Shown in pieces: positions 1,105 to 14,352 of a stretch of DNA of 64,000 bases. Within the stretch, counting starts at the first letter, position 1. Each line of letters opens with the position of its first letter. Both the position numbers and the translations under genes were made by a program. The stretch is taken from the IMG/VR virus record IMGVR_UViG_2541047802_000007, one strand, 5' to 3'. A model generated the notes under the pieces. That model searched no databases. It was not told where the DNA came from and worked only from the letters and a program-made list of their open reading frames with translations. This stretch comes from a virus (Duplodnaviria; Heunggongvirae; Uroviricota; Caudoviricetes).

Positions 1105-1338
1105 ATGCGCATTGAAATAATGATCGATAAAGAGCAGAAGATTAGCCAGTCTACCCTGGACGCCCTTGAATCCGAGCTTTACCGCAATCTGCGCCCCCTG
1201 TATCCCAAAACGGTAATTCGCATTCGCAAAGGTAGCTCTAACGGTGTGGAACTAACCGGACTGCAACTGGACGAAGAAAGAAAACAAGTGATGAAAATTA
1301 TGCAGAAGGTGTGGGAAGACGACAGCTGGCTGCATTAA
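1105..1338 (+). CDS. DinI-family protein (SOS/RecA modulator-like)
   Basis: 78-aa product with DinI/MsgA-like pattern; ATG at 1105 after GAGGTG. Confidence 0.65.
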   Translation: MRIEIMIDKEQKISQSTLDALESELYRNLRPLYPKTVIRIRKGSSNGVELTGLQLDEERKQVMKIMQKVWEDDSWLH

Positions 1339-1474
1339 GAAACGTTGCTGGCGTCTGAACTTGCTTCTGGCGTCAGCAAGGTTGAACAACGAGCCCTTGC
1401 GAGGCGTTAGCTCTGTAGTGCATGTCTATGCCGCATGAGATCGCATGATCGTTTGAGGATCGTTTTTGCTAAGG

Positions 1475-1498
1475 CCCGCCAGAACTGGCGGGCTTTTG
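1475..1498 (+). terminator. Rho-independent terminator candidate after dinI-like gene
   Basis: GC hairpin gcccgccag/ctggcgggc followed by TTTT. Confidence 0.5.
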
Positions 1499-1542
1499 CG
1501 TAGATCATGCAGGTGCATGAAAACCACTACATAAAGCGGGCA

Positions 1543-1561
1543 GGCGTGGCGGGGATACGAG
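1543..1561. other. Candidate cos site (cohesive-end sequence) of the P2/186-like phage
   Basis: GGCGTGGCGGGGATACGAG resembles recalled 186/P2 cos 19-mer (GGCGTGGCGGGGAAAGCAT / GGCGAGGCGGGGAAAGCAC); located upstream of Q as in P2. Confidence 0.5.
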
Positions 1562-1659
1562 CGCGCGTATTTGGTCGTTACTTAGCTTTTTTTTATCAAT
1601 AGATTAAGCTAACTTAAGTCTTTTTAGGAAAAAATATTTTTTCGTGATGAGGTAGAAAG

Positions 1660-3069
1660 ATGTCTTTTCTTGATATAAAAAAAATGAGTAAAGAGAGGTT
1701 TAATGCTTTTGTTGATTGGACCAGAATGCCAAATACTGAACTTTTAGGCTATGAGTTTGAGTGGTACTGTAGTCCGAGAGAGTTCCTGCTAGGGGCACTA
1801 TTATTGGATCAAATCGATGAAGATTATAGCGGTATTGTTTTAGCAAGAGACTTAAGTGGGAGATATAGATGTATTGACCTATTTACTAGTGTTTCAGAAA
1901 TGAATTCTGCACGAGCAAAACTAAAGAAATTAATGCGGAAGCATACTAAATTAAACGTAAAAGTATTTCCACAAGGTGATGAAACTTATAAAGCAATGGA
2001 TTTATTCACACCTATAGTTACACCAGATAAACTTCATCATCATTTTTCATTATTTGGTAAATATGCGAACTGGTCGCCTGCAACAGGGATAATCAAGGAA
2101 ATGATGAATCATTTTGAGGATGTCGACGGGAATTTTATAGAGCAGTTTCAGACAACAGGTTTTGATGCCCGGCTATGGGAGTTATATCTTTTCGCATATT
2201 TACGAGAGGAACACTTTTGGCTAGATAGGCAGTTTAATGCCCCTGATTATGTGGCACGTAAGTATGGTAATACTATTTGCATTGAAGCTGTAACGGTTAA
2301 TCCAACAGGGAATGATATTAATCAATCATCTGAAATGCTATCTGAACCTAAAAGTAAGGAAGAATTGCTAGAGAAAATAGAGAATTATATGCCGATTAAA
2401 TTTGGAAGTTCTCTCTATTCTAAACTGAAAAAGAAAACTCGATACTGGGATCTAGAACATGTTAAGGGGAATCCTTTAATTTTCGCAATTGCTGATTTTC
2501 ATGAACCAAACTCTATGATTTGGTCCCATAGTGCACTTTGGCAGTATCTTTATGGTATTCGCTATGAGCATGTTAAATCTGAAGATGGATGTTACAGTTT
2601 AGCAACTAAGAAAATTATATCGCATCAATTTGAGAAAAAGGAAATTCCTTCAGGCTTTTTCTTCTTGGATGAGTCTGAAAATATTTCGGCCGTCCTTAGT
2701 TCTAATAGTGGTACTATATCGAAGTTTAATCGGATGGGAAAACTGGCTGGTTTTGGAAGAAGTGACCTTAGATTATTTAGGAGTGGTTACTGCCATGATC
2801 ATGACCCAGAGGCATTATATCCAGCAGCATTTAGTTTTGAAGTGAAAGAAGGCGATATTACAGAAACATGGGCAGAAGGTTTAAATATGTATCATAATCC
2901 TAATGCTAAATATCCTGTAGATCCTGATTTATTTCCTTCAATAGCACATCATTTTCTTGAAAATGGAGAGGTTAAAAGTATAGTGCCTGACTTTCATCCG
3001 TATACATCTATTACCATAAATGTCTTAACTCAAAATAATAAAAAACAAAAAATCAGAGTAGATGAGTAA
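1660..3069 (+). CDS. Hypothetical 469-aa cargo protein, AT-rich, no recognisable family; candidate accessory/defence gene
   Basis: Long ORF with AGGTAG RBS-like sequence upstream; base composition much lower GC than flanking phage genes; located between cos and Q. Confidence 0.75.
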   Translation: MSFLDIKKMSKERFNAFVDWTRMPNTELLGYEFEWYCSPREFLLGALLLDQIDEDYSGIVLARDLSGRYRCIDLFTSVSEMNSARAKLKKLMRKHTKLNVKVFPQGDETYKAMDLFTPIVTPDKLHHHFSLFGKYANWSPATGIIKEMMNHFEDVDGNFIEQFQTTGFDARLWELYLFAYLREEHFWLDRQFNAPDYVARKYGNTICIEAVTVNPTGNDINQSSEMLSEPKSKEELLEKIENYMPIKFGSSLYSKLKKKTRYWDLEHVKGNPLIFAIADFHEPNSMIWSHSALWQYLYGIRYEHVKSEDGCYSLATKKIISHQFEKKEIPSGFFFLDESENISAVLSSNSGTISKFNRMGKLAGFGRSDLRLFRSGYCHDHDPEALYPAAFSFEVKEGDITETWAEGLNMYHNPNAKYPVDPDLFPSIAHHFLENGEVKSIVPDFHPYTSITINVLTQNNKKQKIRVDE

Positions 3070-3090
3070 TTAATTAGGTTTATTCTTGTT

Positions 3091-3111
3091 AACCACCTCA
3101 TAGAGGTGGTT
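3091..3111. terminator. Hairpin (aaccacctc-ata-gaggtggtt) between convergent cargo gene and Q; possible bidirectional terminator
   Basis: Perfect 9-bp inverted repeat. Confidence 0.4.
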
Positions 3112-3116
3112 ATTAA

Positions 3117-4154
3117 TTAGTCTAGGGATAGTTGATATTCTTTGAATGTAATAATATTATTTTTTAGCCATAAATTTAATTCTTCGAAACGTTTTTGCAA
3201 AGGTATTAATTCATTACGAACAAATACCCGACTTGCCTTCTCCACATCCCCAAACCCCCCAACATTATTCGGCAAAATTCCCATCATCTGAGGCGGTACG
3301 CGGTGTGCAGCCATCATGTCGTCCCGGCTCACGTTCTTGATGTTCAGAAATTCATCTTTCGCTGCGACTTCTGACAACGGGATGATCTGAAGCCCGTCCT
3401 TTTTGCCGTTAGGCGAGTACATAAACAGGTTGCGGAAGTTGCCAGGGCCTTTGGCGCTTTTCATCGCGTTGCGGAGGTTGTTCACATCTTCCTGGTTCTG
3501 CGCGGCGTCGGTCATATACATGATGAAGCCTGCATGACTGCCGTTAATGTAATACTTGCGGCGGAACAGCGTGGCAGACTCGTTGAGCAGGGCGGATGGA
3601 ATAGCAGAAAGATAACCGGGCAGGCCGTAGATCTCCTGGTTGATGTCCGGTTCCATCAGATGAAAGATGCTGCCTTTCGTGAACTGATATGGCTGCGTGG
3701 TCATACCGTATTGCACAAACCAGTAGGTATCCAGGTCTAACCCGCGTCGGGTGTATTTTGCCAAGGCAGGTTCAAGGGCGATAACTTCACCGAAGCGGTT
3801 CGTGCGTTTCTCCAGGTAGGCGTTACCAAATACCAGATAGTCCTGCACAAAACGCGAAAAAGCCTGCTGGCTGAGCAGCGGGTGAGGGATGTAGGTGCTG
3901 GTCAGAATGTTGCACTTTACTGCAATCGGGGAACTATGATGAACGGCAGCGCGGAAGGTGCGCGCCAGTCCGTCAAAGCTGACGGGCGGCTCATACCAGC
4001 GGTCCATCTGTACGCATTCCACATAATCCAGCAGTTCTCGGCGGTCCAGAACAGGAACGGGATCGCCGAAGCTGAATGCTTCGGCTGTAGTTTGACTTTT
4101 AAGCTGGATCTGTTTCGTCGCCGCAGCGCGGTTCTTCTTACTCTTTCCCATCAA
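3117..4154 (-). CDS. Q: Portal protein (P2 gpQ-like)
   Basis: 345-aa product similar to P2 Q; synteny with P. Confidence 0.85.
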   Translation of the reverse strand: MMGKSKKNRAAATKQIQLKSQTTAEAFSFGDPVPVLDRRELLDYVECVQMDRWYEPPVSFDGLARTFRAAVHHSSPIAVKCNILTSTYIPHPLLSQQAFSRFVQDYLVFGNAYLEKRTNRFGEVIALEPALAKYTRRGLDLDTYWFVQYGMTTQPYQFTKGSIFHLMEPDINQEIYGLPGYLSAIPSALLNESATLFRRKYYINGSHAGFIMYMTDAAQNQEDVNNLRNAMKSAKGPGNFRNLFMYSPNGKKDGLQIIPLSEVAAKDEFLNIKNVSRDDMMAAHRVPPQMMGILPNNVGGFGDVEKASRVFVRNELIPLQKRFEELNLWLKNNIITFKEYQLSLD

Positions 4155-11428: not shown

Positions 11429-11879
11429 ACTGCAGAAGGTGGACGACTGGCTGAGTGCCTTGCTGGCGAATCTGGAACCAGCCTCGAGAAGCCGCATGAT
11501 GCGCCAGCTGGCGCAGGAACTTCGCCGGACACAGCAGCAGAATATCAGGATGCAGCGCAACCCTGACGGCAGCAGCTATGAACCGCGACGGGTAACAGCA
11601 CGCAGTAAAAAAGGCCGTATCAAACGTCAGATGTTTGCAAAGCTGCGCACCACAAAATACCTGAAAACTGCCGCCAGCGCCGACTCTGCCAGCGTGCAGT
11701 TTGAAGGTAAGGTACAGCGCATTGCCCGTGTTCACCATTACGGTCTGCGTGATCGCGTCAGTCGCAAAGGACCGGACGTACGGTATGCAGAGCGGCGTTT
11801 GTTGGGTATTAACAATGATATTGAGAACAACGTTAAGAATGTTTTTTATCAATGGTTAATTAATAACAATAAGCCGTAA
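11421..11879 (+). CDS. S: Tail completion protein (P2 gpS-like); GTG start; C-terminal ~25 codons run into AT-rich cargo DNA
   Basis: Similarity and synteny; 3' end composition shift. Confidence 0.75.
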   Translation: MAELQKVDDWLSALLANLEPASRSRMMRQLAQELRRTQQQNIRMQRNPDGSSYEPRRVTARSKKGRIKRQMFAKLRTTKYLKTAASADSASVQFEGKVQRIARVHHYGLRDRVSRKGPDVRYAERRLLGINNDIENNVKNVFYQWLINNNKP

Positions 11880-11934: not shown

Positions 11935-13635
11935 TTATTCAAGGTGATTTGAAAGAGTAATTAATGGCTCAATCGGTTGGAACGCTTTTAAGGATGTTAA
12001 TATGTTTTTAACTTCCTTTGATACGATAGATAACGGGTTGTCTGTTACAGATAAGTAGGTGGTTAAATCTTGACCTGAAACACGGATAACATGTGGTAAT
12101 ATCGCAGTTATAACTGGTGTCCAAAGGTCGATTAAATCATCCAGAGAGTTATTTTTAGATAATGCTGTATCATATTTATATTTTATTTTCTTCTTGTTCA
12201 AAGGTTTATCTGTTAATTCTTCAAGTATTTCTCCGATGACGGATATTAAAAAGAATCGAGACTTTAAATTTTGGAGGAATAATAAGTTATCCTCATCTAC
12301 TTTAATTTTATTCTCTTTTGCACGGATTTGAGATTTTACTTTTTCTATAGCTTTTGAAATAGTGTAAGCACATAAAATATGCTGGGCTTTCGAATCATGA
12401 AAGGCATTGTCATAGGCTGATTTTGTATCGAAAACGTAGTTTTTACCTCTATTGGCGCTAACATAATCCCCATGTAACGCTATCAGCGGTTGAGCAACAG
12501 ACTCAATGCCAAATAAAGAACCAGTATTTTCGAAGCCGCGTTTCAGTGAATATGTATAACCAAGAGTGGAAAATTCTTCTGCCACCTGTTTTTGTTCTGT
12601 GCTGTTAGAGTAGTGATCCCAGGTTGTAATATGATTCTGAGTATTATTATACTGGACTATTTTTTTTACTTTGTCCGCATCATTACATTCAATAACCTTA
12701 CAAAGGACTTTTAGGCCATCTAATTTTTGTATATCTTGAACTGAACCAATAGAACCAGTGGTTTGAGCTCCATTTATGATTGAAACTCCTTCCAACAACC
12801 CTTTTTCTTTGTTGAATTTTGTTGTTAGGATTGATACACCATTGTTAAAGACAAAGAAGTCTTTTGGGGATGTTTCTGCGGTATTCTTAATTGATGAGTT
12901 TATTTTTCTTCTCTTATTTAATCCCATGAACCCCCTATAATTAGCAGAAAATAATTCTGCTCCATAATTTTTGTATAAATAATTTAGCCAAGTGCCGTTT
13001 GCAAAGCCAACATGTGAAGTCCAGCCATCACCTTGTACAGAATTTATAAGTTCGCCATTGAACTTTATATTGTCAGTCACAACAATTTGTTGTGATAGCG
13101 CAATATACAATTTTTCAAGACTATTAACACCAAGTTCTCTGTAAGTTACCTCAATTTCTTTGTCTGCAAATCTACCTGCTAGATAGTCACGACAAGTTTC
13201 AAGCTCAGTTTTAACCTGCTCAGATTCGGCACAATTATGGATATATAATAATTCAACAGCTTCAATTTCGTTATCATCAATTAATTTTCTAACCTCAGAA
13301 ATTTTTGCTCTTAATTTTGCATTTGGAGACTCTCCTGAGCCTGCCATAATCCACGCTAAAGCAGTGTTTAAGTCAGAAGCTTTATTTGCAGGCGCAACTA
13401 TTTTAAGTGCTTGCTGATTGCAGTAGTAACCCTGAGCAATAAATAACGTTGAATTAATTACGGTAATGAAGTCTATTTTCTTATCGTTTCCACCATCAGT
13501 AAGTCCATCAGATGCTAGCTTATCAAAATCGGATTCATCTAAGTAAAGACCTAATGACCATAAAAGATGTGCGTTACTAGTCCCGTACTTTTCTAACAGG
13601 GAAGTTTTATTTTGCAGTTGTCTTAAGTGTTCCAT
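11935..13635 (-). CDS. 566-aa cargo protein, AT-rich; tentatively AIPR/abortive-infection-like; candidate anti-phage defence gene
   Basis: Long antisense ORF between tail genes S and V; low GC; motifs LTDGGNDKKIDF and FVFNNGVSILT recalled as AIPR-like (unverified). Confidence 0.7.
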   Translation of the reverse strand: MEHLRQLQNKTSLLEKYGTSNAHLLWSLGLYLDESDFDKLASDGLTDGGNDKKIDFITVINSTLFIAQGYYCNQQALKIVAPANKASDLNTALAWIMAGSGESPNAKLRAKISEVRKLIDDNEIEAVELLYIHNCAESEQVKTELETCRDYLAGRFADKEIEVTYRELGVNSLEKLYIALSQQIVVTDNIKFNGELINSVQGDGWTSHVGFANGTWLNYLYKNYGAELFSANYRGFMGLNKRRKINSSIKNTAETSPKDFFVFNNGVSILTTKFNKEKGLLEGVSIINGAQTTGSIGSVQDIQKLDGLKVLCKVIECNDADKVKKIVQYNNTQNHITTWDHYSNSTEQKQVAEEFSTLGYTYSLKRGFENTGSLFGIESVAQPLIALHGDYVSANRGKNYVFDTKSAYDNAFHDSKAQHILCAYTISKAIEKVKSQIRAKENKIKVDEDNLLFLQNLKSRFFLISVIGEILEELTDKPLNKKKIKYKYDTALSKNNSLDDLIDLWTPVITAILPHVIRVSGQDLTTYLSVTDNPLSIVSKEVKNILTSLKAFQPIEPLITLSNHLE

Positions 13636-13773: not shown

Positions 13774-14352
13774 ATGAACACACAACTAACCGAAATCATG
13801 CGCCTTATCACCAACCTGATCCGCACTGGGGTAGTCACCGAAGTGGACCGGGAAAACTGGCTTTGTCGGGTGAAAACAGGCGACTTAGAAACCAACTGGA
13901 TCAGCTGGCTGACCCTGCGTGCCGGGAATGCCCGGACATGGTGGCGACCATCGGAAGGTGAGCAGGTGGTGCTGCTGAGTCTGGGCGGCAATCTGGAGAC
14001 CGCCTTTGCGCTGCCCGCTGTCTATTCGAATCAGTTCGCACCACCGTCGACGTCGGCGGACGCCTGCGTGACAGAACATCCTGACGGTGGCTGGTTTGAA
14101 TACGAACCCGCCACCGGGCGCTGGTATGTCAGGGGCATCAAATCCATGGTTATTGAGGCTGCCGACAATATCACCCTGAAAACCAGTGAGTTTGTGCTGG
14201 AGGCTGACCGCACGCGTATTAATAGTGAAGTAGTGATCAATGGCGGCGTTACCCAGGGCGGCGGTGCGATGAGTTCTAACGGGATCGTGGTTGATGCGCA
14301 TCAGCATACTGGCGTCCTGAAAGGCGGCGATACAACCGGAGGCCCGGTATGA
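13774..14352 (+). CDS. V: Baseplate spike/assembly protein (P2 gpV-like)
   Basis: 192-aa product, synteny. Confidence 0.85.
   Translation: MNTQLTEIMRLITNLIRTGVVTEVDRENWLCRVKTGDLETNWISWLTLRAGNARTWWRPSEGEQVVLLSLGGNLETAFALPAVYSNQFAPPSTSADACVTEHPDGGWFEYEPATGRWYVRGIKSMVIEAADNITLKTSEFVLEADRTRINSEVVINGGVTQGGGAMSSNGIVVDAHQHTGVLKGGDTTGGPV

Follow-up and report, generated by a model that had tools for sequence, protein, structure and literature searches.

A PD-T7-1-family gene as probable single-gene anti-phage cargo beside cos in a P2-like prophage

Introduction

PD-T7-1 is one of 21 systems that were recovered by functional selection and reported by Vassallo et al. 2022 (PMC9519451). In that report, the source is strain ECOR46, the clone retained its native promoter, and the protection described extends to T7 and is stronger for T-even phages. 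The authors label the system “Nuclease”, and their HHpred matches are weak (Hjc with 80% probability and PDDEXK_5 with 55%, residues ~171-219). A further copy, from NILS69, protects against a Teseptimavirus and leads to smaller T7 plaques (PMC12409345). Later surveys merely restate the nuclease-domain prediction for PD-T7-1, and a published mechanism was not found in the literature. The present analysis concerns a member of this family that is encoded in the IMG/VR virus record IMGVR_UViG_2541047802_000007 (Caudoviricetes), of which a stretch of 64,000 nucleotides (nt), here called the window, was analyzed. The gene, referred to as the cargo gene, is an open reading frame (ORF) of 469 amino acids (aa) at 1660..3069 of the window and lies between the cohesive-end site cos and portal gene Q of a P2-like prophage.

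The cos-proximal region between gpA and gpQ is a hotspot with 1,650 gene arrangements among 18,150 occurrences (Rousset et al. 2022, PMC9122126), and its slot is named “P2 defence hotspot #1” in Vassallo et al. 2022 (PMC9519451). The slot in the window is this published P2 defense hotspot, being located between gpA and gpQ beside cos and varying in content between homologous flanks. Both the defense family and the prophage hotspot are catalogued, so that the cargo gene is an ordinary example of something already known. It probably represents a single-gene anti-phage cargo of the hotspot, whose product most likely acts as a self-contained, metal-dependent defense nuclease. Points of modest value are a domain permutation, a noncanonical active site, and the occurrence in E. 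coli of two family clades that are 33% identical.

Assignment of the cargo gene to PD-T7-1

By its sequence, the cargo gene is a member of PD-T7-1 and not an orphan. The PADLOC model of PD-T7-1 (PDLC04073) matches residues 7-457 over profile positions 2-449 of 452 (E = 1.3e-196, 651.7 bits). The next-best PADLOC model is PD-T7-5 (PDLC04110), which covers residues 113-436 (E = 1.4e-56, 190 bits). PHROG 8571, a family of unknown function, covers residues 108-465 (E = 5e-152). Pfam searches with the window protein and 15 diverse relatives at lenient thresholds yielded no relevant family, NCBIfam gave one chance-level match only (E = 0.072, 11 bits vs a cut-off of 1061), and a profile search of all PDB sequences returned only noise (E = 0.75, gramicidin synthetase).

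These hidden Markov model (HMM) searches had been proposed in an earlier note, made from the letters of this DNA alone, in which the gene matched no family and was regarded as an orphan with an undescribed single-gene function. The full-length PADLOC match overturns the first of these statements, and the second is superseded because PD-T7-1 is a validated single-gene system (Vassallo et al. 2022). What had been the best lead of this kind in the window is mostly closed, since the PD-T7-1 model already labels the cargo. The suggestion of an anti-phage gene has gained support, as family membership makes the cargo a very good anti-phage candidate, and nothing that the note had listed as speaking against such a cargo was encountered. 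The extent and length that it gave for the ORF are likewise sound. The six-frame ORF list places an ATG start at 1660 on the + strand, a GAGG ribosome-binding site is found at 1649-1652, 8-11 nt before the ATG, and RefSeq annotates a coding sequence at exactly the same positions in E. coli S88 (WP_000008839.1, “hypothetical protein”).

Several database records call family members “glycosaminoglycan attachment (site) protein”. As a clue to function, this name was rejected for lack of domain evidence; it seems to be an annotation artifact that has been propagated. RmuC similarity, which is mentioned in the literature, goes back to an HHpred match of only 36.7% probability in the original supplement. 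RmuC is absent among the fold matches listed, and the similarity was not used. One review places PD-T7-1 among restriction-modification systems. This reading was rejected because the cassette that carries the gene contains no methylase; moreover, no Pfam domain is found that could serve as a reader domain. The Dam-like methylase of the prophage is encoded 3 kb upstream in a conserved early operon, outside of the cassette.

Predicted structure and active site

An AlphaFold2 model based on a 70-sequence alignment (predicted local distance difference test, pLDDT, of 88.4; predicted template modeling score, pTM, of 0.89) divides the protein into three domains. The N-terminal α/β domain (aa ~1-108) is predicted to form a four-stranded sheet with helices, and the central domain (aa ~120-300) takes on a restriction-endonuclease-like fold in the model. 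The C-terminal domain (aa ~300-460) is rich in β-strands and harbors the invariant motifs SKFNRMG, ETW, and HNPNA. A Foldseek search of the full model against the PDB returned nothing at E <= 0.001, and fold searches with the C-terminal domain found no informative structural match. Fold neighbors include Hjc (scores of 5.8 and 5.5, 18-24% identity), UPF0102, FAN1, TnsA, Vsr, SdaI, Can2, and Upx, as well as tRNA-cleaving CdiA-CT toxins and tRNA-splicing endonucleases. As comparisons of a predicted model, these matches are modest in score yet consistent, and the fold class can be regarded as established. Within the model-based list, the nearest neighbors are small structure-specific nucleases and not sequence-specific restriction enzymes. 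The structure prediction and fold search that the earlier note had recommended thus point to a restriction-endonuclease-like core.

Conservation was assessed in 150 representatives at the 50% identity level. The acidic residues of the PD-(D/E)xK superfamily are found at their canonical places, with E174 on helix 1, P195-D196 where strand 2 begins, and E209 on strand 3. Each of these residues is conserved in 97% of the representatives, the other 3% being gaps. P195, D196, and E209 make up the PD...E stretch that had been noticed earlier as a weak feature. The canonical position of the strand-3 lysine (211) is occupied by valine in 49% and threonine in 45% of the sequences and never by lysine. 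On the helix that follows strand 3, K255 is conserved in all 150 representatives (100%) and, according to the model, may replace the missing strand-3 lysine. Relocated or replaced lysines occur in the PD-(D/E)xK superfamily. From this putative metal site we infer nuclease activity with a role for K255 in it.

The N-terminal domain is an accessory module of ~105 aa whose position varies within the family. Among the best 150 representatives, 97 share the domain order of the window protein, 23 carry the module at the C terminus (domain-HMM E-values of 1e-8 to 1e-28; P0173, P0186, P0209, P0214, P0219, P0229, and 17 others), and 26 are core-only proteins of <400 aa, some of which are perhaps fragments. 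One natural relative of 370 aa (L037) consists of the core and the C-terminal domain without the accessory domain. The C-terminal placement of the module in 23 representatives is a natural domain permutation within the family. The module has a conserved residue cluster (E32, D50, D53, D55, R63, D64, and R70) that is kept whether the domain is N- or C-terminal. Because the module is found at either end or is absent, it is most simply regarded as a regulatory or sensing unit that works with the core.

The cassette and its slot beside cos

In E. coli S88, the prophage genes are arranged in the order integrase, CI, early genes, Dam-like methylase, gpA (frameshifted), a 62-aa ORF, a DinI-like gene, cos, cargo gene, Q, P, and capsid and tail genes (Table 1). 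The cos site reads GGCGTGGCGGGGATACGAG and is identical to P2 cos (cosL) at 14 of 19 positions. Extending the comparison to the right-end flank of P2 plus cos, 37 of 45 aligned positions are identical in window 1511-1555.

The variability of the slot is established by three Peduoviridae relatives, whose flanks are 91-97% identical to the window and whose cargo is unrelated. In the equivalent slot, Escherichia phage vB_EcoM-813R9 carries a Hypoth_Ymh-domain protein, Klebsiella phage 4LV2017 a retron St85 effector with its reverse transcriptase, and Klebsiella phage ST512-KPC3phi13.2 an Abi-alpha-like protein. The cos site is kept in all three at 94-97%. Homology to all three relatives stops at 1567, 6 nt past cos, and restarts at 3136-3202 inside the 3′ end of Q. 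The cassette that is delimited in this way contains the cargo gene as its only ORF, according to both the ORF list and the S88 annotation.

The cassette stands out by its base composition. The cargo gene has a GC content of 35%, and the spacers before it (92 base pairs, bp) and after it (47 bp) have 26% and 30%, respectively; outside of the cassette, Q and P range from 53 to 57% (57% in terminase gene P and 52.7% in Q without its last 28 codons). The last 28 codons of Q fall to 23.5%, with the stop codon starting at 3117. This pattern recurs in relatives whose cargo gene is 72-100% identical, where Q tails of 26-40% GC follow on adjacent Q sequence of 51-56%. Judged by composition and homology, the low-GC Q tail travels with the cargo and belongs to the exchanged segment. 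The portal proteins of the window and the three relatives are 93-94% identical overall and diverge in their last ~25 residues, with N326, W328, F336, and Y339 being invariant in the divergent ends, P2 included. Since the ends diverge and yet keep a shared pattern, each cassette supplies its own functional Q C terminus. The right-hand recombination boundary lies within Q.

The earlier note had taken the gene for cargo in an accessory slot at the end of a P2-family genome and had described a candidate cos, a lower GC content than in the neighboring genes, and an AT-rich end of Q as if remodeled by the insertion. All of this holds, and the comparison across P2-like prophages that it called for reveals different cargo between conserved anchors.

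A terminator-like hairpin with a U-run, which marks the end of the early (gpA/DinI-like) transcription unit, precedes cos (-23.4 kcal/mol, z = -4.9; none of 200 shuffled sequences was as stable). Because of this hairpin, the cargo gene presumably has a promoter of its own within the AT-rich upstream spacer, although promoter scans found no sigma-70 consensus in 1568-1659. A 10-bp hairpin is located between the convergent cargo gene and Q and is stable on either strand (-14.7 kcal/mol, z = -4.1 / -5.1). It could act as a terminator for both directions.

Table 1. Coordinates of features at the cargo locus in the window
Feature	Coordinates	Strand	Basis
Terminator-like hairpin with U-run	1471..1499	+	Fold energy vs shuffles, sequence
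cos, 19-nt cohesive-end site	1543..1561	.	Likeness to P2 cosL and relatives
Low-GC exchangeable cassette (spacer, PD-T7-1-family gene, hairpin, Q 3′ tail)	1568..3201	.	Homology breakpoints, GC
AT-rich upstream spacer with ribosome-binding site	1568..1659	+	26% GC, GAGG; promoter presumed
PD-T7-1-family gene, 469 aa, WP_000008839.1	1660..3069	+	PADLOC, PHROG, AlphaFold2
Accessory domain, aa 1-108	1660..1983	+	Predicted structure, conservation
Restriction-endonuclease-like (PD-(D/E)xK fold) core, aa 120-300, predicted	2017..2559	+	E174, D196, E209, K255
β-rich C-terminal domain, aa 301-460	2560..3039	+	Motifs SKFNRMG, ETW, HNPNA
10-bp hairpin	3090..3112	.	Fold energy, both strands
Low-GC Q 3′ tail, last 28 codons	3117..3201	-	GC 0.235, travels with cargo
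Portal gene Q, conserved right anchor of hotspot	3117..4151	-	RefSeq “phage portal protein”; 62% identity to P2 gpQ

Distribution of the family and its two clades in E. coli

When 1.84 billion representative proteins were searched with a profile, 2994 clusters were recovered at E <= 0.001, of which 708 also passed E <= 1e-30. Genera named among the matches include Erwinia, Klebsiella, Burkholderia, Pseudomonas, and Massilia. Of 24 IMG/VR loci, 12 directly adjoin a P2-type portal, including one with a cargo that is only 48% identical. In a P2-like prophage of Erwinia billingiae (L011), cos, a homologous cargo gene (74% identity), and Q are arranged as in the window. The GC content is 38% in this cargo gene and about 40% in the Q tail, and a nearly identical cos-like site is located at the equivalent place. 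Across five kinds of context, the neighbors of the gene are wholly different. As the gene alone is common to all of them, this supports an autonomous single-gene module.

One of these contexts is a chromosomal island with a 59%-identical homolog (metagenome contig SRR8654052_16409, L012 1-13446). The homolog starts 3 nt after a gene for a 1455-aa MmeI-like methyltransferase/endonuclease, which is itself preceded by a SNF2 helicase gene, and is followed by genes for a HATPase_c protein and a 1335-aa protein. This locus could be a larger defense island or a multigene system that has recruited the nuclease.

E. coli S88 and several further strains, of which many are extra-intestinal pathogens, contain window 1300-3300 with 100% identity. 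Among 5426 complete E. coli genomes, parts of this 2-kb query corresponding to the flanks are present in 1283, and the cargo in 25, in every case with at least 99.7% identity. In the broiler-chicken isolates E. coli 33-6 and 58-3, an IS1 element splits the match to the cargo gene, which is thereby disrupted.

A second clade of 449 aa, with a gene of exactly 1350 nt, occurs in 201 of the 5426 genomes and is eightfold commoner than the 469-aa clade. It is 33% identical to the window protein, and its phage-borne form scores 520 bits against the PD-T7-1 model, compared to 652 bits for the window protein. Judged by this model, the window protein holds a central position within PD-T7-1. The ORF of the validated ECOR46 system (RCQ85672.1) spans 2183-3533, or 1350 nt, and encodes 449 aa, in contrast to the 469 aa of the window protein. 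From this length, the tested protein probably belongs to the 449-aa clade, so that probably only one of the two E. coli clades has been tested experimentally. RCQ85672.1 was not in the cluster look-up, and the strains listed in the E. coli genome searches did not include ECOR46. The 449-aa clade is also carried by the lambdoid phage mEp460_ev081 and a Morganella phage. In the Peduovirus Yersinia phage vB_YpM_46 (L007 3489-4838), it occupies the Z/fun slot, flanked by genes for tail-fiber assembly and for the sheath. PD-T7-1 is thus represented in both P2 hotspots, each of which is used by a different clade. One copy of the 449-aa clade (H91) is split by an IS1-like element.

Other observations on the prophage

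Both 4LV2017 and ST512-KPC3phi13.2 contain an extra insert of ~845 bp on the gpA side of cos (corresponding to window 1336-1420), which gives the hotspot a variable slot of its own on each side of cos. The insert of ST512-KPC3phi13.2 contains an annotated hypothetical ORF. The gene for gpA (replication endonuclease), whose 3′ end reaches window ~752, is annotated as frameshifted by RefSeq (S88 record, L001 6013-8453), and the prophage may be defective for replication as a consequence. A second low-GC cargo gene is located at window 11935-13635 on the - strand (566 aa, 31-37% GC vs ~57% in the flanks). RefSeq names its product “AIPR family protein”, and PADLOC assigns it to AbiU (E = 1.7e-24). 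It lies between a virion-morphogenesis gene that ends at 11879 and the next tail/baseplate gene that starts at 13774, and not in the classical Z/fun slot.

Proposed mechanism and alternative explanations

Starting 6 nt past cos, the cassette reaches about 28 codons into Q and includes its own Q tail, which points to recombination between P2-like phages. The phages would exchange it with cos and Q as homologous anchors. In the lysogen, the gene would be expressed from the AT-rich spacer, and its product would protect the host against unrelated lytic phages, those opposed by tested family members being T7-like and T-even. The core would bind metal through E174, D196, and E209, with K255 from the next helix standing in for the strand-3 lysine, and recognition of the target or gating would be the task of the ~105-aa accessory domain and the β-rich C-terminal domain. 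The target would probably be phage DNA or branched intermediates. T7 and T4 are unlike in DNA modification and both replicate via branched concatemers, so that recognition of DNA structure by the window protein is a reasonable guess. A more specific proposal, which we regard as speculative, is a nuclease architecture that has not yet been described. Here, an Hjc/VRR-NUC-like core without the strand-3 lysine would be gated by a mobile, acidic ~105-aa module that is perhaps autoinhibitory or trigger-sensing. The core would perhaps cleave branched intermediates that T7 and T4 both form during replication or recombination, and the S88 clade, with only 33% identity to the probable prototype, would perhaps have a different phage range.

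A possible, though rather less probable, explanation than a nuclease directed at phage DNA is an abortive-infection toxin, which once triggered would be lethal to the infected cell and would degrade nucleic acid of both host and phage, perhaps RNA or tRNA. The cassette holds no methylase or other partner for telling self from non-self, tRNA-cleaving CdiA-CT toxins and tRNA-splicing endonucleases are among the fold neighbors, and 12 of the 21 systems behaved as abortive infection in the account of Vassallo et al. (PMC9519451). The same account, however, describes direct immunity for 7 of 11 nuclease-like systems, and the aspartate and glutamate residues of the metal site are closer to the DNA nucleases of the fold than to the metal-independent tRNA-splicing enzymes. 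These residues also bear on the idea that the protein is a PD-T7-1 defense protein with a degenerate core, which would serve as a scaffold for binding or sensing and leave the activity to the C-terminal or the acidic accessory domain. This is unlikely, as three acidic residues at canonical positions with 97% conservation, together with an invariant lysine on the adjacent helix, are expected of an active metal site and not of a decayed one, and the C-terminal domain has no recognizable enzymatic relative.

It is very improbable that the gene is a prophage moron with a function outside of defense, for example in virulence or surface modification. The “glycosaminoglycan attachment protein” records and the extra-intestinal pathogenic character of S88 and several other listed carriers would fit such a role. 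Without a Pfam or NCBIfam family, the name has no domain evidence behind it, and the PD-T7-1 family has two independent anti-phage validations and homologs in defense islands and several kinds of phage hotspot. For the favored defense nuclease, E174, D196, E209, K255, and the accessory domain, which is N-terminal, C-terminal, or absent in nature, are offered as targets in PD-T7-1.

Comparison with known systems

The cargo gene resembles PD-T7-1 in being a low-GC single gene without partners that is carried by prophages and matches the model over its full length, and in showing a weak Hjc / PD-(D/E)xK signal in the equivalent region (residues ~170-220). With PD-T7-5, it shares the core and C-terminal domain (aa 113-436) and the same conserved residues. 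The PD-T7-5 model differs in lacking the ~105-aa accessory domain and scores 190 bits compared to 652 bits for PD-T7-1.

Compared to Hjc, VRR-NUC/FAN1, XisH, and YraN/UPF0102, the window protein lacks the strand-3 lysine, and its core is set between two extra domains. These minimal PD-(D/E)xK nucleases act in DNA repair, whereas the window protein is placed in phage defense, and sequence similarity between them is not detectable.

The old and tin genes of P2 occupy the same region between the anchors (Rousset et al. 2022; Odegrip et al. 2006), and in both cases the lysogen excludes, or in the window would exclude, unrelated phages. In P2, however, old and tin are located on the gpA side of cos (right genome end), whereas the window cargo is found on the Q side (left genome end), where P2 has only 167 nt from cos to Q. 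The Old and Tin proteins are unrelated to the window protein.

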